From an uncultured Alphaproteobacteria bacterium (GTDB lineage Bacteria > Pseudomonadota > Alphaproteobacteria > 43-37 > CAWALT01): a stretch of 64,000 nt of DNA. Within the stretch, counting starts at the first letter, position 1. Every line of letters begins with the position of its first letter. The notes below the pieces were generated by a model. The model saw only the letters and a program-made list of their open reading frames with translations, was not told where the DNA came from and did not search any database. Of this stretch, positions 10,705-62,080 are shown piece by piece. The translations under genes were made by a program, and so were the position numbers. Location of the stretch: assembly GCA_963782975.1 (NCBI GenBank), contig CAWALT010000003.1, positions 589,805 through 653,804 on the forward strand, given 5' to 3'.

Positions 10705-10796
10705 GGAGGGATGGCCGAGTGGCTGAAGGCGCACGCCTGGAAAGTGTGTATACGTCTCAAAGCGTATCGAGGGTTCGAATCCCTCTCCCTCCGCCA
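10705..10796 (+). tRNA. tRNA-Ser (anticodon GGA), long variable arm, CCA encoded
   Basis: Acceptor stem ggaggga/tccctcc. The anticodon loop cctGGAaag gives GGA. T-arm gaggg-ttcgaat-ccctc, discriminator G, then CCA. The long variable arm is typical of Ser. Confidence 0.85.
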
Positions 10797-10950
10797 TTAT
10801 TCTATGAGCTTCTTAAAAGAGGCTCATAGAATAATGATAGATGGCTCGAGGACGAGAACCCGACAGAGGGTTCGGCGAGCCCTGGTGAGCGACGCCGTAG
10901 GCGGCCCCAAAGGGGTGAGCGTTAGCGAACAATCCCTCTCCCTCCGCCAC
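10797..10950 (+). repeat. Integration-scar-like segment carrying a duplicated tRNA 3' end (att-like direct repeat)
   Basis: The tRNA 3' end atccctctccctccgcca (10779-10796) is repeated exactly at 10932-10949. The second copy is preceded by gagggttcg, a partial T-arm interrupted by a GC-rich ~55-nt insert. A perfect inverted repeat attattctatgagc...gctcatagaataat lies at 10797-10840. Confidence 0.45.
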
Positions 10951-38726: not shown

Positions 38727-39139
38727 GATATAAAGATGACATTCACTGCATTATAATGATAGAGAAAGAAATCCACAAACCTCACTATAACTAGGAGGAG
38801 GTGGCAGTACAATCATTTTTATTTCTTGCCTGAAGAGAAATTATAGAGCAATGGCTTATAATTATGATATAGCAGGCTTCTGCGAGGCTACGCAAGTATT
38901 TTAGTGAAGGTGAGCCTGTTTCCCCTAAAACTTGTTTTCTTCTTATCCTGGCTTTCATCTTGCCCTTTGTTATGGTTCGTGCTCTGAATTAGGAGCCCTC
39001 TTTTTCCCTGTTCTTGTCCTCCTTTAACAAGTAAACAAACAACAATATAAAAGCCCGTAAATAAAAGCGAAATTTTTACTTTTTGATTAAAGAGTGCTAT
39101 CCATGATGTATTTCGCATCGTAGTAGAAGGAGAGAGAAT

Positions 39140-39691
39140 ATGAAGGAAGGTATCCTTGAGTTATTATTAATGGCCTGGTCGTCGGTAAGTACCCTATATG
39201 CCCCTAGCTATGTCTTTGATGCCCAACTTAATACCGAGGTGTTGACAACAAAAGTGACGCGTACCTGTGAGCCAAGGCACCTTCATCCGAAGGACCTTGA
39301 CCGCTACTTTGCTACGCCTTGGGAAGAGAGAAAGAACTTCCCTCTCTATTATGCGAGTGAAGCGTTAGGGATTAAGCCAGGGGAGCAGCCCCCCTATGAG
39401 GCGTTTAAAAATCCGGAAGCTCACCAGAAAGAGGTAGAGCGCCTATTAAGGATTATGGTGTCCTTTAGTGATGATAAGGATACCTGTGACAAGGAAGGAA
39501 TTAAGTATATTGCCCGATTGTATCACTATTTTTGTCCCGGGTCAGGACCATTTGAGCAATTAAGCGCGGAGGCCCAGGAAGCTTTAACAAAGTTTTACTT
39601 CAAGTTCCGTGGGCCGGTGTTTGACTTAGCGCGTGACGTGGCCAACTGTCCTTATATTACAGAGAATATTATCCATAAGAAGAAGGATTGA
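39140..39691 (+). CDS. Small secreted Cys-containing protein, copy 1 (unknown function)
   Basis: 183 aa with an N-terminal signal peptide (ILELLLMAWSSVSTLYA). It is about 80% identical to the 40309..40845 product. No recognisable domain. Confidence 0.5.
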   Translation: MKEGILELLLMAWSSVSTLYAPSYVFDAQLNTEVLTTKVTRTCEPRHLHPKDLDRYFATPWEERKNFPLYYASEALGIKPGEQPPYEAFKNPEAHQKEVERLLRIMVSFSDDKDTCDKEGIKYIARLYHYFCPGSGPFEQLSAEAQEALTKFYFKFRGPVFDLARDVANCPYITENIIHKKKD

Positions 39692-39756
39692 GACTTGTCT
39701 AAGCCCCTTTAAAAAGGTTTCCAAGAAAGTAACAAAAAAAAGACAAGGACGGAAGA

Positions 39757-39972
39757 ATGCGGCTTCTTTATTATGTAGGGCTGGGTGTCATGCTGTTATT
39801 ACAGCCAGCTCGAGGCTTTGAGACGGTTACCCCCTCGACCCACCATCTGATCGCTACCTATACGGATGATCGACCTTACAGCCAGGTCGCTTGGCTCACG
39901 ACGCATAATGCCTATGCCAACGTGCGGGATGGATGGCGTTATACGCAACAGACGGGGGTTCTCTCTCGATAG
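39757..39972 (+). pseudogene. Truncated copy of PLC-like phosphodiesterase (N-terminal 68 aa only)
   Basis: MRLLYYVGLGVMLLLQPARGFETVTPSTHHLIATYTDDRPYSQVAWLTTHNAYAN matches the N-terminus of the 477-aa downstream paralog. Homology ends where the GC-rich foreign segment begins. Confidence 0.6.
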
Positions 39973-40227
39973 CTGATTCCGTAGCAAGCACCCTCCCTAG
40001 GCTAAACCCAGGGCCTTCACGCCTGGCCATGGTAAGCTCCGCCACGCTGTACTAACGCTACCGCGGCTGCAGGTAGCTAGGGCGTGCTCTCAGGGTAGCG
40101 TCCTCGTTCTCTCCTTTATACGATAAAGACTCTTATTGTTTATAATATTTACTCCCCCTCCTGTAGATCTTTTTATTAATTTGTTGCAAGACTTAATTAG
40201 CGCACAAGCAGCAAGATGAAGGGCAGT

Positions 40228-54112: not shown

Positions 54113-55474
54113 TTAAGTTTTTTGACGAGGATTTTCTTGCAGCCCCGGGGAAAGGATCGGCTCTTCTTTTAAAAGGCGAATGCCTCTTTTCTTCTCTTGA
54201 AAGATTTGGTCAGCATATGGAGCTGTCAGTTTCACAAAAAGAATAATGCGCGTTTCCTCATCGTGGCGGTTGACAATAGCTCCATGACGATATAGCCAGG
54301 CAAGAGATTCGCCATCATGTATATCTACTTCAATCCATAGCGCCTGTTCCTGTTGGCCGAATATTTCATCGATTTTTCGGTAAAGCTCCTCACATCCATC
54401 GCCTTTAAGAGCCGAAATAATGACCGAGGAAGGATGAGAAGCTGCATAGCGTCTTACCTGGACTTGCCGTGCGACGTCCTCTATCGCATCCGACTTATTT
54501 AATACCTCAATATAACGATCCATTAAAGAGAGCTCGACCCCTAAATCTTTCAAGATAGCCTGAACGCTTTCATTATGTTCTTGATAGCATGGATGCGTCA
54601 TATCACGTACATTTAAGATCATATCGGCCTCGATCACTTCTTCCAGTGTCGCACGGAAAGCCGCGACCAAATGGGTAGGCAAGTGACTAATAAAGCCCAC
54701 TGTATCAGAGAGTATGACTTGACGCCCTGAAGGGAGAGTAATAAGCCGCATGGTAGGATCAAGCGTGGCAAACAGTAAATCTTTTGCCAAGACCTCAGCT
54801 CCTGTGAGACGATTAAAGAGTGTTGATTTTCCCGAATTAGTATAACCTACTAAGGCCACAATAGGGTAAGGAATACGTTTTCGTGCTTTACGATGAAGCT
54901 CACGCGTCTTAATGGCTTGTTGTAACTGTTTCTTTAGCCGAATAATTTGTTGATCGATAAGCCGACGATCTATTTCAAGCTGGGCCTCTCCCGGACCGCT
55001 CATCGCCCCACTTGCACCTCTCTGTCGTTCAAGGTGTGTCCAGGTACGAACCAAGCGACTGCGCTGATATGTTAAGGCGGCCAGCTTTACTTGTAAGCGG
55101 CCTTCGGCTGTGCGCGCACGTTTATTAAAGATTTCGAGAATAAGACCTGTACGATCAATTACTTTAACTTCAAGAAATTTTTCCAGGTTACGTTGTTGAG
55201 AAGGAGTAATATCGGTGTCAATATAAAGAAGATGACATTCTGTGTGGGCCATAAAATTTTTGGTCTCTTCCAACACTCCTGAACCAAGCAATGTGCCACT
55301 GTGGTATTTGACAAGAGGAATAGCACGCGCCTGTTCTACCTTTAAATCCATGGCTTGGGCAAGCCCAATCGCTTCCTCTAAGCGCCATGTTTCCATATCA
55401 CTTGAAGGACGCTCAACTTTTAAAAAAGGATGAAGGATAAAAACTGTTTCTTCTTTAACTTTCGTATCTTTCAA
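54113..55474 (-). CDS. hflX: GTPase HflX
   Basis: HflX N-domain followed by a G domain (GYTNSGKSTLFN, DTVGF, NKSD). 453 aa. Confidence 0.9.
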   Translation of the reverse strand: MKDTKVKEETVFILHPFLKVERPSSDMETWRLEEAIGLAQAMDLKVEQARAIPLVKYHSGTLLGSGVLEETKNFMAHTECHLLYIDTDITPSQQRNLEKFLEVKVIDRTGLILEIFNKRARTAEGRLQVKLAALTYQRSRLVRTWTHLERQRGASGAMSGPGEAQLEIDRRLIDQQIIRLKKQLQQAIKTRELHRKARKRIPYPIVALVGYTNSGKSTLFNRLTGAEVLAKDLLFATLDPTMRLITLPSGRQVILSDTVGFISHLPTHLVAAFRATLEEVIEADMILNVRDMTHPCYQEHNESVQAILKDLGVELSLMDRYIEVLNKSDAIEDVARQVQVRRYAASHPSSVIISALKGDGCEELYRKIDEIFGQQEQALWIEVDIHDGESLAWLYRHGAIVNRHDEETRIILFVKLTAPYADQIFQEKKRGIRLLKEEPILSPGLQENPRQKT

Positions 55475-55923
55475 ATAAAACTCCTTTGCTACTCCATAGT
55501 TTACCGCTTACTGATAAGAGAGTTTAAGCCACTGCGCTATTATTTCCTTAAACTTTTTATGGTCCTTGGTACAACGTATGCGTTCATGCGCAAAACCTCC
55601 CTTGCTTAAGGAAATAGATCAAGAAGGGCACAGAGGAGGGTAGGGCAACAATAAAATGAGATGACGCTAACAACACTACTACGAGCAATACAGGGGTAAA
55701 GATATTTTCTAGCACAATTAAGAGCGCTCTTCGCCTATCCAAGAGGATAATTTATACTACGAAAGCTTATAAAATACAAGGCTCATAAAATTTCTTGTTC
55801 TAACCTTTCAGGGGCCTTATCTGCTTTTAGCCTATCAAAAAAAGATGCCAATAATTTTACTTTTTTATATAAACTTAATTTTTTAATGTTAACAAAAGGA
55901 AGAGCTGTGTTAAAATTTTTTAG

Positions 55924-56706
55924 ATGCTTAAAATAAGGGAACCTTTGATGGCTAGCGTAAAAGATTTCAATAAATCCCAAGTTGTATTTGGAGTAATCTT
56001 AGGGATATCCATTATTATTTCAGCTTTTCTTATCTCAAATGCACTGGTAAAAATAAAGAATTCTCAGCAACGCTTTAGCGTGAAAGGGTATGCAGAACAA
56101 CCTGTTACCTCGGATTATGCTATATTAGACGGCTCTTTTTCTCGAACATCCCTTGACCTAAAGGAAGCTTTCAAGCAGCTTCACGAAGATAGAGAAAAGA
56201 TAAAAAATTTTCTTCTTAGGAATGGAATTACGGAGAAACAAATCACTTTCCGGCCACCTAGCTTTTATGCCCTCTACAAAACGGTTTCAGGAGCAGGCGG
56301 CTATTATGAAAAGACAAATGAGGTCGAAAGTTATAAGGCAACTCAAGAGTTCCAATGTGAATCAGACGATGTCTCACTCATAAGCAAGCTCTCTCAGTTA
56401 GTATTCGATCTAACAGAAGAGGGAGTTATTGCTCAGATGAACGCTCCCAAATACCTTATCACTCACCTCGACCAATTTAAATTGGACATCATTGGTACGG
56501 CTACGCAAAATGCCCAAAAACGTGCTGAGCAATTTGCGGCTCATACAGGAAAAAAGGTTGGATCGATCGTAAACGCCTCGCAAGGGATCTTTCAAATCAC
56601 ACAACCGATGTCAACTTCTACCGCTGACTACGGCATTTATGACACTTCTACTATTGAGAAGGTTATGAAGATAGTGGTAAGAGTTGAGTTCGCCATTGAA
56701 GATTAG
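55924..56706 (+). CDS. SIMPL-domain (DUF541) periplasmic/membrane protein
   Basis: N-terminal TM helix. The ~230-aa body is SIMPL-like (kinase-interacting SIMPL domain family). Confidence 0.55.
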   Translation: MLKIREPLMASVKDFNKSQVVFGVILGISIIISAFLISNALVKIKNSQQRFSVKGYAEQPVTSDYAILDGSFSRTSLDLKEAFKQLHEDREKIKNFLLRNGITEKQITFRPPSFYALYKTVSGAGGYYEKTNEVESYKATQEFQCESDDVSLISKLSQLVFDLTEEGVIAQMNAPKYLITHLDQFKLDIIGTATQNAQKRAEQFAAHTGKKVGSIVNASQGIFQITQPMSTSTADYGIYDTSTIEKVMKIVVRVEFAIED

Positions 56707-58324: not shown

Positions 58325-58401
58325 GCGCCCGTAGCTCAATTGGATAGAGCGTCAGACTACGGATCTGAAGGTTAGGGGTTCGACTCCTCTCGGGCGCGCC
58401 A
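58325..58401 (+). tRNA. tRNA-Arg (anticodon ACG)
   Basis: Acceptor stem gcgcccg/cgggcgc. The anticodon loop ctACGga gives ACG. T-arm ggttcgactcc, then CCA. Confidence 0.85.
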
Positions 58402-58441
58402 CGATTCTATGTGTGTCTTAGTTTTATAGGTATGTTCCTGA

Positions 58442-58479
58442 CCCTGGAAGGCGGTTCTCCCCTTCCAGGGTTTTTTTTA
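58442..58479 (+). terminator. Rho-independent terminator
   Basis: Perfect 10-bp stem ccctggaagg / ccttccaggg with a 9-nt loop, followed by T8. Confidence 0.7.
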
Positions 58480-58521
58480 CATTCTAACACTTGCTCGTTT
58501 ATGGGTTTTTTCGCCTAACAC

Positions 58522-58790
58522 CTATAAAGGTTTGGTATCTTCTGTTTCTTCGCCACTCAATTTTAATGGAAGGCGCGAGGTCCTGCTCGGAAACATAAGT
58601 GGCAAGACCCCCGTTCCGATAAGATTAGAGCGGTGAATGTGTTCGAAGCTCTCTGCCATGACTGCCAAGAAGCCTTGTCCCTTTAGCTGTCCAGTCGCGG
58701 GAGGAACCTGTGCCATATTCTTTTCCTTCAATAACGACAAGGGAAATCTGCCGTTCTTTATAAGCCATAGCAGCCCCTAACGAGTCCGAT
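58522..58790 (-). pseudogene. Fragment of aconitase C-terminus (diverged partial copy of acnA)
   Basis: Minus-strand translation ...[12 protein letters not shown]...[40 protein letters not shown] is about 85% identical to AcnA residues ...[12 protein letters not shown]...[40 protein letters not shown]. It has frameshifts. Confidence 0.7.
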
Positions 58791-59015
58791 ATGTTCTTAA
58801 ATGTACGTGATATGACGCATCCATGCTATCAAGAACATAATGAAAGCGTTCAGGCTATCTTGAAAGATTTAGGGGTCGAGCTCTCTTTAATGGATCGTTA
58901 TATTGAGGTATTAAATAAGTCGGATGCGATAGAGGACGTCGCACGGCAAGTCCAGGTAAGACGCTATGCAGCTTCTCATCCTTCCTCGGTCATTATTCGG
59001 CTCTTAAAGGGGATA
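58791..59015 (+). pseudogene. Fragment of hflX (near-identical inverted partial copy)
   Basis: About 210 bp essentially identical to the reverse complement of hflX at about 54475-54690 (encoding [65 protein letters not shown]). Beyond that it carries a 1-nt deletion and then diverges. Confidence 0.8.
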
Positions 59016-59266
59016 GACATCTCTTCTCCCTATTAACCTGGAGGTTATCTTTGCCCGAGGAAACTTCGTAGCAAGAGATACATCCTCCCTTTAGCAGCCA
59101 ATGAAGGACTCCGCTTAGCTCATTATTTTCCGAGCATCAAACGTGATTCTTACCTGTCACATTGGTATCGGCGAGAAGGGGGCCAACGACCAAACCGCCA
59201 CCTTAAGTCAAAAACATTTTGCCAGCTTGTCTATTCTTTTGAATCTGCCAAGTAGCTCCTTCATCT

Positions 59267-60328
59267 TTATGAGTGTTGCTTTCTTTTTCTCTGCCAAGTT
59301 TTTATCCAGCGAACCAACGTCTCAACGAAAGGTTCTTCATCATTTAGGCAAGGGATAAGTGTATACTCTTGACCACCCGCATTAAGAAAAATCTCCTTAC
59401 CCCGTAAGCCCATCTCCTCAAGCGTTTCCAAACAATCGGCGACGAAGGCAGGGCAAATAACCCGCAGGCGTTTTACACCCTTTCGAGGAAGTTCACGAAG
59501 GACGTGGTCCGTATAAGGTGTCAGCCACTTAGCCCGCCCTAAGCGTGATTGGAAAGCTAAGGAATATTTATGAGAGGGAAGGTCCAGAATTCTTGCGAGT
59601 TCAAACGTTGTACGCCTAATATGAAAACGATAACACGTTTTATGAGCAAGATTTGGCTGAGCACAACAGTGCTCCTTTAAAAGACAATGCGCGCGCGTAG
59701 GATCCGCTTTTTTAAGGTGATGTTCGGGCAGCCCATGATAACTAAATAATAAGTGATCAAAATCATCCTCCAAGAAGGGCCGAGCTACTTGAGCAAGAGC
59801 CTTAATATAAGCTTGGTCGTCATAAAAAGGAGAGTGAAAATCCACCTTTACCTTTAGACGTCGGGAAGCAATAATCCTTTTGACTTCTTCAACCGTAGTG
59901 GTGACGGTCGACATCGCATAATGAGGGTAGAGAGGTATAACATACAGAGAATCAATGTGATAAGTATTTACTAATGCCAAGATACTCGCTTCAATCGACG
60001 GTTGACCGTAACGCATTCCTAATTCGATAGGGATGGAAAGCCGCTGGCTAACCTTATGTAAAAGATTCTGGCTGTTGATTAAGAGAGGGGAACCAGCCTC
60101 CTGCCAGATAGCCTGATAGGCCTTCGATGTACTCTTGGGCCGAAAAGGTATAATAACCCCATAGACAAAAAATGCACGAAGTAACCAAGGCAGGTCTATT
60201 ACATAAGGGTCCATTAAAAATTGCTTAAGATAAGCCCGAATATCTTTGACGTCAGGCGATGCAGGGGAGCCTAAATTGGTTAAAAGTACCCCAAATTTTT
60301 TACCCATTCGTTGTGTGGCCCCCCTCAT
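59267..60328 (-). CDS. hemH: Ferrochelatase
   Basis: N-terminal LLTNLGSP motif and conserved His/Glu active-site regions. 353 aa. Confidence 0.85.
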   Translation of the reverse strand: MRGATQRMGKKFGVLLTNLGSPASPDVKDIRAYLKQFLMDPYVIDLPWLLRAFFVYGVIIPFRPKSTSKAYQAIWQEAGSPLLINSQNLLHKVSQRLSIPIELGMRYGQPSIEASILALVNTYHIDSLYVIPLYPHYAMSTVTTTVEEVKRIIASRRLKVKVDFHSPFYDDQAYIKALAQVARPFLEDDFDHLLFSYHGLPEHHLKKADPTRAHCLLKEHCCAQPNLAHKTCYRFHIRRTTFELARILDLPSHKYSLAFQSRLGRAKWLTPYTDHVLRELPRKGVKRLRVICPAFVADCLETLEEMGLRGKEIFLNAGGQEYTLIPCLNDEEPFVETLVRWIKTWQRKRKQHS

Positions 60329-60337
60329 TTCTAGCGC

Positions 60338-60838
60338 CTAGTCAATAATCGTTAATTCCCTTAAAGGGATCTTATCAAGAAATAATAAGATTAAAGTAAT
60401 TATTAAAGAAAACACAACCACAAATGTAAGATATGAACGCAAGGTAGTAAACCAATCAGGAGTTCCTAAATTCTGCGTTATGTACATATCAATAACCCAT
60501 TGGAGGAAGAAAGCCATAGCCATTAAGGCCACCCAGTACGTGGGAGTATAGATAAAAAAGAGTCCCCAACAGGTTAAAGCAATAATATTGCCAAAAATAA
60601 AGAGATTTGCACTCAAGCGGTTTGCCATTAGGGAAGGCTTATGCATCATAGAAATTCCCCATTGGACACCACTCGTAAAGCTTAAAGTAACAATTCCAAA
60701 TATCTTCAAAATGAGCATCCACCTAAGTGTTTGAGGCATAAGAATCGATCCGATAGGGCAGACAACAAATGGAATAAGCCCTAATGTGCCGAGAATAAAA
60801 GGTAACATAGGGATAGGTATATCTTGTTTTTTCGTCAC
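60338..60838 (-). CDS. Small integral membrane protein (about 5 TM helices), unknown function
   Basis: 166-aa hydrophobic protein directly upstream of hemH on the same strand. Confidence 0.4.
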   Translation of the reverse strand: MTKKQDIPIPMLPFILGTLGLIPFVVCPIGSILMPQTLRWMLILKIFGIVTLSFTSGVQWGISMMHKPSLMANRLSANLFIFGNIIALTCWGLFFIYTPTYWVALMAMAFFLQWVIDMYITQNLGTPDWFTTLRSYLTFVVVFSLIITLILLFLDKIPLRELTIID

Positions 60839-61260
60839 TTTAACACCTCTTTTGTTTCCTATATCTTATAAGGTGCATTATACACAAACAGCATTTTAAA
60901 ATAAAGAGCAGAAAATTTTATATAAAAATTTTATTAGATATTTAAAAAATGGTAATCGAATATTTATATAAGCAGGCATTCTTAGTGCATAGTTTTTTTG
61001 TTAGAGAATAAGGGTATAGGGTATAATTTATTAGAAGATGGAGCGCTTGATTAGAGGTAGGCGCTAGAGAAATTATTGATGATGAGCTACCTAATAGAGT
61101 GAGGGAGTGGAGTAATGAAAATGAGACTCAAATGACCTCTGTTAAGCTTATAGTATACGAGCATCAGACAAGAAAGTCTTAATTAGAGCAGGGGTGCCAG
61201 GTACTTATACATCTTGCTTAATTTGCCCGCATTTTTTTAGTATATTTGCCATAAATTCTT

Positions 61261-61626
61261 TTATTTCCTCGATATTCCATCATAGTATCTCTTTAGCATT
61301 TTATCGATTTCTCCATAAAAACATTTGCTAAAGCCCTCCGGCCCTTCAGAATGAAGCCCAATATATTCTTTCTCTACAGCCAATCTTGCCATCTCAGACC
61401 TATAATCCTTATTGACAGGCTCTTTCGCAAGATCCATTTCATAAACTATAAAAATGCCCGAATAAAAATTGGGAGAATAAGATTGGCTAACGGAGTGACC
61501 ATAAAGCTTTATCATTATATCATCGGGATTAAACATTTGCTTGTAACGCACTTTTCCATTGCGAAATGACTCAATCTCAATAACACCTCCATAACCACGA
61601 TCGCCCGGTGGCAATCTCTCCTTCAT
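61261..61626 (-). CDS. Hypothetical protein
   Basis: 121-aa ORF. An ATGA overlap with the upstream 72-aa ORF (61623..61841) suggests translational coupling, or a frameshift within one gene. No recognisable domain. Confidence 0.3.
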   Translation of the reverse strand: MKERLPPGDRGYGGVIEIESFRNGKVRYKQMFNPDDIMIKLYGHSVSQSYSPNFYSGIFIVYEMDLAKEPVNKDYRSEMARLAVEKEYIGLHSEGPEGFSKCFYGEIDKMLKRYYDGISRK

Positions 61627-61841
61627 TGAAGATCATATCCACCTTGGCGTTTTAAGACACCAAGATAGTGGATACAATATCTTCTTTCATACACGTTGAA
61701 AGATAGATAGGCATAATGTGAACCACCTCCAAAAAATAGTGCTAACACATCGGGGGTGAAGAGGTTTGTCCTTATATTTGTCATTATAGATGAGCTCCCT
61801 CGGAAAGGGTGACTTATTACCTTTCCTATGCACAGCTTCAT
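61623..61841 (-). CDS. Hypothetical protein (coupled to 61261..61626)
   Basis: 72-aa ORF. See the previous feature. Confidence 0.25.
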   Translation of the reverse strand: MKLCIGKVISHPFRGSSSIMTNIRTNLFTPDVLALFFGGGSHYAYLSFNVYERRYCIHYLGVLKRQGGYDLQ

Positions 61842-62080
61842 GACCTTCCTTTTTTGCGGTGCTTTCTAAGGATTTTTTTACTTGTGAGGCTTGAGCTAAG
61901 TAAGAAAAAAAAGCGCTAAATAACATTAACAATAACGACCTAACCCTATAAGGTTGGTAAAATTCATTCTATGAGTCATTCGAGAAATCCTGTCTTTGCT
62001 TAGCACCCTCGAGATTTATTCTTTTTTTAATACGACAACGCTCAAAATCTTCCTTCCAGAAACTCTTGCTCTTTTTAGGC

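Follow-up and report, generated by a model that had tools for sequence, protein, structure and literature searches.

Partial gene copies left by recombination are already well known, and the locus described here adds an instance with a tidy nested architecture. It lies in 64,000 nucleotides (the window) of contig CAWALT010000003.1, from an uncultured Alphaproteobacteria bacterium, where an 865-bp spacer separates the tRNA-Arg(ACG) gene from hemH, which encodes ferrochelatase, with converging transcription units on either side. Within this spacer is a patch made of a piece of acnA into which a piece of hflX has been inserted, both in inverted orientation relative to intact parent genes elsewhere in the window.

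The closest described counterparts are the templated insertions of the fork stalling and template switching (FoSTeS) or MMBIR (microhomology-mediated break-induced replication) type, known mainly from yeast and human, with templates usually some 100 bp to a few kb away (PMC8421209). As in those events, the patch holds inverted copies of nearby templates on the same chromosome, joined with no or very short microhomology, with a return to the original template, no loss of target bases, and changes concentrated beside the junctions. In contrast, the host here is a bacterium, the templates are 4.1 and 10 kb away, the inserts measure 232-273 bp, one junction is blunt, and the mechanism has to be deduced from the scar only. 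A second counterpart is SPDIR (short-patch double illegitimate recombination; bioRxiv 10.1101/2023.11.22.568220), which likewise joins intragenomic ectopic DNA at perfect or imperfect microhomologies, homologous recombination playing no part. The microindels described there are 3 to ~100 bp long and usually replace a segment of the target, whereas the patch contains a pure 232-bp insertion whose extended microhomology does not exceed chance.

Three other systems bear a more general likeness. Truncated genes and fragments left by recombination are found in Anaplasmataceae and other Rickettsiales (PMC1366493), but these belong mostly to the p44/msp2 surface-protein families and arise by homologous or cassette recombination, whereas here the donors are single-copy housekeeping genes, the joining appears illegitimate, and the organism need not belong to the Rickettsiales. 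The chimeric open reading frames (ORFs) of plant mitochondria, including the cytoplasmic male sterility (CMS) genes, are also patchworks of housekeeping genes made by illegitimate or microhomology-mediated recombination, in a genome derived from alphaproteobacteria; they are, however, organellar, often transcribed and translated with a phenotype, and housed in recombinogenic multipartite genomes (PMC11312923), whereas the patch gives no hint of expression. Silent cassettes such as pilS, vls and the msp2/p44 pseudogenes (PMC2789410) share with it promoterless fragments, high identity and a position away from the expressed copy. They come in families with variable and conserved segments and encode surface antigens; with one frameshifted piece for each of two cytoplasmic housekeeping genes, the patch does not fit, and the silent-cassette reading was rejected. 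It was dropped together with readings as a diversity-generating-retroelement (DGR)-like or retron-like system and as a paralogue, as reverse transcriptase and recombinase are both lacking, no adenine-specific or other pattern marks the differences, and no frame is intact.

Architecture and decay of the nested copies

Self-comparison, which covered the 64-kb window, returned only three dispersed or tandem repeats, namely the hflX pair, the acnA pair and a tandem duplication at 39-41 kb, the first two being the sole dispersed repeats in the 64 kb. By blastn the hflX piece aligned with its parent as 58781-59017 against 54632-54395 (97.9% over 238 columns, E = 1e-112), and the acnA piece as 58543-58775 against 48542-48302 (92.5% over 241 columns, E = 2e-98), both well outside anything chance would produce. 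A first-pass annotation of this DNA had placed fragments of hflX and acnA next to tRNA-Arg(ACG), and the identities of acnA, hflX, hemH and tRNA-Arg(ACG) were confirmed. The same annotation took the acnA fragment to be merely the upstream neighbour of the hflX piece, which proved wrong: acnA homology picks up again directly after the hflX piece and matches the reverse complement of the donor at 19 of 19 positions, so that one fragment is nested in the other. The insertion point falls between the equivalents of acnA positions 48296 and 48295, with no target bases lost. The hflX piece is a clean insertion within an older acnA piece, in the structure A-B-A. As the nesting shows, the acnA piece came first and the hflX piece second, and the divergence of the two from their parents agrees, with 10 substitutions in 233 positions for the acnA piece and 2 in 230 for the hflX piece (Fisher p = 0.036). 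The proposal of two intragenomic duplications, the hflX one younger than the acnA one, holds on both grounds.

The hflX piece has its sense orientation on the + strand and covers 78 codons, including the NKSD G4 motif. The ungapped core of 217 nt is 99% identical to the parent, and the 203 nt at 58795-58997 are 100% identical. Its description as near-identical and inverted was correct, while the coordinates proposed for it (58795-59005 against 54475-54690) had to be corrected to 58781-59012 against 54632-54400. Two substitutions, at 58785 (A283S) and 58794 (I286F), lie near the left end; a mismatch at 59011 and a 1-nt deletion in the TTT run after 58997 complete the differences. All of them fall within 14 nt of an end, for which the chance is ~0.002, calculated post hoc as (28/230)^3. 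In 124 of 124 HflX homologues, residue 283 is an invariant alanine, where the piece has serine, and position 286 is isoleucine, valine or leucine, where it has phenylalanine. The deletion breaks the frame just before the invariant S354-A355.

The acnA piece, with its sense on the - strand, is older and more worn. Its larger part, 58536-58775/58780, is the reverse complement of 48549-48302/48296 and consists of two blocks, 94% and 96% identical to the parent, split by an 8-bp deletion that sits between GGC repeats and shifts the frame. Identity is ~96% over the aligned bases and 92.5% when the gap is counted, rather than the ~85% first suggested; that this is a frameshifted copy was correctly recognized, but it is not of the extreme C-terminus. 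The whole piece represents ~273 bp of the donor, codons 763-853 of 908 (91 codons), inside the Aconitase_C domain. The 10 substitutions are spread over the codon positions as 3:4:3, and 8 of the 10 are non-synonymous. One substitution and a 1-nt deletion fall in the last 5 nt beside the hflX insert. Beyond 58536 or 59031 acnA homology falls to noise, and the piece may reach 59036 (ATTAA) across a 5-nt deletion. At its left edge, positions 58540-58542 read TTC where the parent, in the same orientation, has GAA, and TTC is the reverse complement of GAA; this triple mismatch may be a 3-nt micro-inversion at the junction or a matter of chance (1 in 64).

The direction of change in the acnA piece was polarized by alignment with IRP1, IRP2 and mitochondrial aconitase. 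At G787E, A800T, I813M, R819H, M828T and G838R the parent keeps residues common to IRP1 or mitochondrial aconitase, and none of the differences polarizes to the parent. In the patch as a whole, every polarizable difference is derived in the fragment and falls at a conserved residue. Both pieces are judged to be dead, non-functional fragments, because each has a frameshifting deletion and substitutions at conserved residues, and the first-pass annotation had come to the same view. Neither has an intact frame over a complete domain (91 and 78 codons), as a functional paralogue would. The ORF at 58522-58740 (- strand, 72 aa), which matches Aconitase_C, and that at 58791-59036 (+ strand, 81 aa) are by-products of the fragments.

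Junctions and the route of insertion

No repeats lie at the junctions. At the left hflX junction, 0-1 nt are common to donor and target; at the right one, two are (AT), or 4 of 5 in AT.GA. A candidate extended microhomology, GCCTCATAAA against GGCTCTTAAA, reached a best local score of 6, where the null mean is 5.6 and 45% of random windows score equally well. Because the junctions share at most 2-5 nt, they point to illegitimate joining and not to repeat-mediated homologous recombination, and the latter, which had been proposed for this locus, was given up. The companion image of a scrapyard or patchwork of core-gene fragments was abandoned too, since only two pieces are identifiable and 285 bp of the spacer match nothing.

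The patch is best explained as a real, non-functional product of nested illegitimate insertions, to which we assign a probability of about 0.7. Template switching as the specific route is put forward more tentatively, at a little under even odds. In the first step, ~273 bp of acnA would have been copied from a donor 10 kb off into a convergent spacer that we infer to be selectively neutral, where the copy would then have decayed neutrally. In the second, 232 bp of hflX, from a donor 4.1 kb off, would have been inserted between adjacent nucleotides of the acnA copy. On each occasion a nascent DNA end would leave the spacer during replication or break repair, as in a templated insertion of the FoSTeS/MMBIR type, find single-stranded DNA of the opposite strand some kb off, prime there on microhomology that is short or absent, copy ~0.25 kb and then return to the original template. 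The end-clustered differences of the hflX piece could come from error-prone synthesis at the junctions. As template switching predicts, the insert is copied from the same genome, its template is nearby and inverted, and the target is continuous on both sides. The arms are 4148 nt (hflX) and 9986 nt (acnA) apart, the donors lie on the same side, and both copies are inverted.

Several points weigh against this explanation. Canonical templates lie ~100 bp to a few kb away with microhomology at both junctions, and template proximity has been used operationally at roughly 100 bp (PMC8421209), whereas the templates of the patch lie at 4 and 10 kb and its left junction is blunt. The argument from proximity is biased in that only donors inside the 64-kb window are recognizable, and 285 bp of the spacer are unassigned. 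Gene conversion by the parent could equally explain a perfect hflX interior with altered ends, in which case the hflX piece may predate its apparent age. Finally, the collections searched hold no relative above 57-59% protein identity, which is too distant to reveal an empty site, the timing of the events or their fixation.

Capture of free DNA, either from the organism's own degraded chromosome or from lysed siblings, is the main rival, though an unlikely one. End joining would have sealed such fragments into a double-strand break, or they would have annealed at a fork in the manner of SPDIR, leaving an identical dead scar by another route. Junctions with little or no homology suit this process, as does the hflX piece being a pure insertion without target loss. 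According to the preprint (bioRxiv 10.1101/2023.11.22.568220), SPDIR integrates intragenomic single strands at microhomologies, imperfect ones included, but the products it describes run from 3 to ~100 bp, against 232 and ~273 bp here, and the extended microhomology at this locus is not above chance. Nor does a random origin predict that both donors should lie no more than 10 kb away and both copies be inverted. Template switching is favoured over capture of random fragments because the donors are nearby and both copies are inverted.

Expression, function and other origins

The first-pass annotation had also suggested that the fragments could serve in small-RNA production, which the searches did not sustain. 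Three promoter-like sites were found in the patch against 3.1 expected from shuffled sequence, and there was none upstream of the patch on the + strand. In Rfam only the tRNA was matched, and for RNA of the - strand, taken over the full patch, folding does not exceed that of shuffled sequence (z = -0.7). Measured as a regulatory antisense or small RNA gene, the patch has promoter-like sites at background, no RNA family and no unusual fold.

It is highly improbable, in our estimate, that the patch has been co-opted, by read-through antisense from hemH or as a RecA-driven inversion switch, rather than lying inert. The antisense locus would work through duplex formation and down-regulation, with hemH read-through producing RNA antisense to hflX mRNA or a + strand transcript producing RNA antisense (~240 nt) to acnA mRNA. 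For a functional locus of this kind, which we consider very unlikely, one can point to the 203 nt of the hflX piece that are perfectly identical to the parent and to the open path from hemH. Read-through into the patch seems possible because, on the - strand, nothing resembling a terminator was found once the hemH frame ends, and the tRNA terminator lacks a U tract when read that way; the 3' untranslated region of hemH would then be extended into ~230 nt of perfect antisense to hflX mRNA. On the + strand, by contrast, the tRNA terminator blocks entry. This terminator pairs 58441-58451 with 58461-58471 in a perfect stem of 11 bp, ahead of eight consecutive T, and folds at -29.3 kcal/mol (z = -5.5). 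Against antisense function also stand the background level of promoter-like sites, the lack of an Rfam match or unusual structure, and the acnA piece itself, which decays unconstrained, deletions included. If the read-through route were true, haem and iron metabolism would be coupled to a ribosome-rescue GTPase. In the inversion route, RecA would flip the 4.1-kb segment between the 217-230-bp inverted repeats, which carries tRNA-Arg, the gene for the CCA-adding enzyme and the 5' two-thirds of hflX, and HflX would be reversibly truncated. Either route, if true, would make a bacterial pseudogene fragment a trans regulator or a switch.

More modestly, the likely sole effect of the pieces is to provide inverted repeats of 217-230 bp (hflX) and ~240 bp (acnA), which RecA could occasionally use for 4-kb or 10-kb inversions. 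In this respect the first-pass annotation was right, as the near-perfect hflX repeat could in principle serve as a substrate for rearrangement.

An assembly chimera, in which the spacer would have acquired acnA and hflX reads, or reads of a strain variant assembled along with the genome, is extremely unlikely. Between strains, functional alleles would be expected to differ for the most part at synonymous sites, which makes a strain-variant chimera improbable when 8 of 10 substitutions in the acnA piece and 2 of 2 in the hflX piece are non-synonymous changes of conserved residues and neither piece is free of a frameshifting deletion. The junctions share no more than 5 nt, too short for a mis-join in a k-mer graph, and an A-B-A nesting with exact resumption of A is atypical of chimeras.

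The patch lies directly downstream of a tRNA gene, and tRNA genes are classical integration sites, but it is exceedingly unlikely that a mobile element or genomic island once entered at the 3' end of tRNA-Arg, carrying or collecting the fragments, and left the patch as its remnant, given that no second copy of the tRNA 3' end (23 nt, at most 3 mismatches) was found in the 64 kb, no integrase, transposase or reverse transcriptase in 58.4-64 kb, and no protein, phage or plasmid match for the unassigned 230 bp, and that the patch begins beyond the tRNA's own terminator.

Genomic setting and significance

The features of the spacer and its surroundings are collected in Table 1. The intact parents are well supported as hflX (TIGR03156, 418 bits) and acnA (1426 bits), and the genes near the patch are hemH, DUF3429, a NUDIX pseudogene, a Cass2/GyrI-like protein and a short-chain dehydrogenase/reductase (SDR); the frames of the patch itself match no family.

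Table 1. Coordinates (window positions) of the tRNA-Arg(ACG)-hemH spacer, its bordering genes and the donor segments
Feature	Positions	Strand	Basis or remark
tRNA-Arg(ACG), CCA end encoded	58325-58401	+	ARAGORN; Rfam tRNA model, 66.7 bits
Intrinsic terminator of the tRNA-Arg gene	58441-58480	+	Repeat search and fold
Unassigned spacer, terminator to acnA piece	58481-58532		Without match in the window
acnA-derived pseudogene piece, larger part	58536-58780	-	Inverted copy of acnA 48549-48296, codons ~770-853
hflX-derived insert, 232 nt	58781-59012	+	Inverted copy of hflX 54632-54400, codons ~282-359
acnA-derived piece, continuation	59013-59031	-	19/19 against the reverse complement of acnA 48295-48277
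Unassigned 230 bp ending at the hemH stop codon, guanine-cytosine (GC) content ~0.47	59037-59266		Without match in searches
acnA donor segment within intact acnA (45990-48716)	48277-48549	+	Window self-comparison
hflX donor segment within intact hflX (54113-55474)	54400-54632	-	Window self-comparison
hemH (ferrochelatase), intact, converges on the tRNA gene	59267-60328	-	Pfam, residues 2-314 of 317

For the two unassigned segments, blastn and tblastx found no donor within the window. The longer one, 59037-59266, gave no Pfam match, none in a six-frame search of 5.8 billion proteins, and none among plasmids, phages or fetched loci. Its open +1 frame, run with HMMER against 1.84 billion representatives, returned two matches at 38 bits, which were rejected as spurious because they are translated tandem repeats. 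It may be spacer native to the site, or else a fragment that came from beyond the window or from a source since lost. In the shorter segment and its border, 58513-58534 was tried as a piece of hemC on the strength of a 21-nt, 90% match to distant bacteria (E 0.01-0.05); it yields no HemC-like peptide and was put down to chance.

The window is otherwise gene-dense, with housekeeping genes intact (pheST, lepA, uvrD, polA, acnA, dnaKJ, sucB, hflX, cca and hemH), and decay in the rest of it is confined to one NUDIX gene with an in-frame TGA and a partial tandem duplication. The NUDIX gene, NudC-like with a Zn-ribbon and a Nudix domain, lies at ~62090-62647 on the - strand and has a single TGA at 62327-62329, exactly where a Nudix box that is perfect elsewhere (GFIEPQESPMDAISRE*KEELGL) has its aliphatic position, after which the frame is open for ~80 more codons. 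It is either a very recent pseudogene or a sequencing error; the genetic code is not reassigned, because the other long genes have no in-frame TGA. The tandem duplication, 39035-39958 / 40204-41111, is 85% identical over 929 nt. Each unit comprises an upstream region, an ORF of ~180 aa without Pfam family (39140-39691 / 40309-40845) and the first ~200 nt of a 477-aa ORF (40910-42343), so that copy 1 ends in a truncated 5' fragment of the gene for the latter. Its identity is a mosaic of long perfect runs beside diverged blocks, which suggests that gene conversion occurs in this genome.

Other observations concern single places in the window. Directly 3' of tRNA-Ser(GGA), a 42-nt near-perfect palindrome (90%) at 10795-10836 is probably the terminator of that gene. 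Beyond hemH, the ~1.5 kb at 60839-62326 hold only short ORFs without family match (61261-61626, 61623-61841, 61687-61932 and 61969-62151) and may be decayed or lineage-specific DNA; the stretch 60800-61000 is very AT-rich (GC 0.25). Upstream of hflX, no recognizable hfq is present in 55475-55923, where the only ORF is 55783-55980, without Pfam match, while in the two HflX homologues whose contigs were examined (P0001 and P0017) hfq sits next to hflX. The GC-skew profile, considered as a clue to a nearby origin or terminus, just follows gene orientation.

Database matches reach at most 59% identity for HflX and 57% for PolA. They fall to Rhodospirillales-like and unclassified alphaproteobacteria, with 'Alphaproteobacteria bacterium 41-28' among the names, and no Rickettsiales or Holosporales names occur among the top 120. 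Neither these matches nor the gene-dense window bear out or contradict the first-pass annotation's likening of the patch to degrading genomes of Rickettsiales/Holosporales-type symbionts. The organism is a deep-branching alphaproteobacterium without a close relative in the databases. At positions that are near-invariant among 124 homologues, its intact HflX has N288 (H in 122), H300 (Q in 123) and S303 (D in 119), deviations that suggest a fast-evolving alphaproteobacterial lineage. An exact look-up of the CCA-adding enzyme gave no match, a scan of contigs for relatives found only Acidobacteria at ~35% identity, the contigs of the best HflX matches share no synteny with the window, and an exact 35-mer of the repeat is absent from metagenome contigs. 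Among the 60 hemH loci scanned (of 80 returned, at 43-54% identity) none has a tRNA within 4 kb, and because of this there is no baseline for the tRNA-hemH spacer.

The main lesson of the patch is one of annotation, as the frame at 58522-58740 (-) would be labelled a hypothetical protein of the 'aconitase family' and that at 58791-59036 (+) a hypothetical 'GTPase'. Beyond this, the patch preserves with rare clarity two insertions that did without homology and brought nearby sequence, inverted, into a spacer of a bacterial chromosome. Long-range template switching is, to our knowledge, well documented in eukaryotes and rarely in bacteria. Should donors elsewhere in the genome prove to be similarly biased towards nearness and inversion, that would argue for long-range template switching as a force in the shaping of bacterial intergenic DNA. 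The inverted repeats themselves could give rise to inversions that break up hflX or acnA, which bears both on the validation of assemblies and on genome stability in a poorly sampled lineage.

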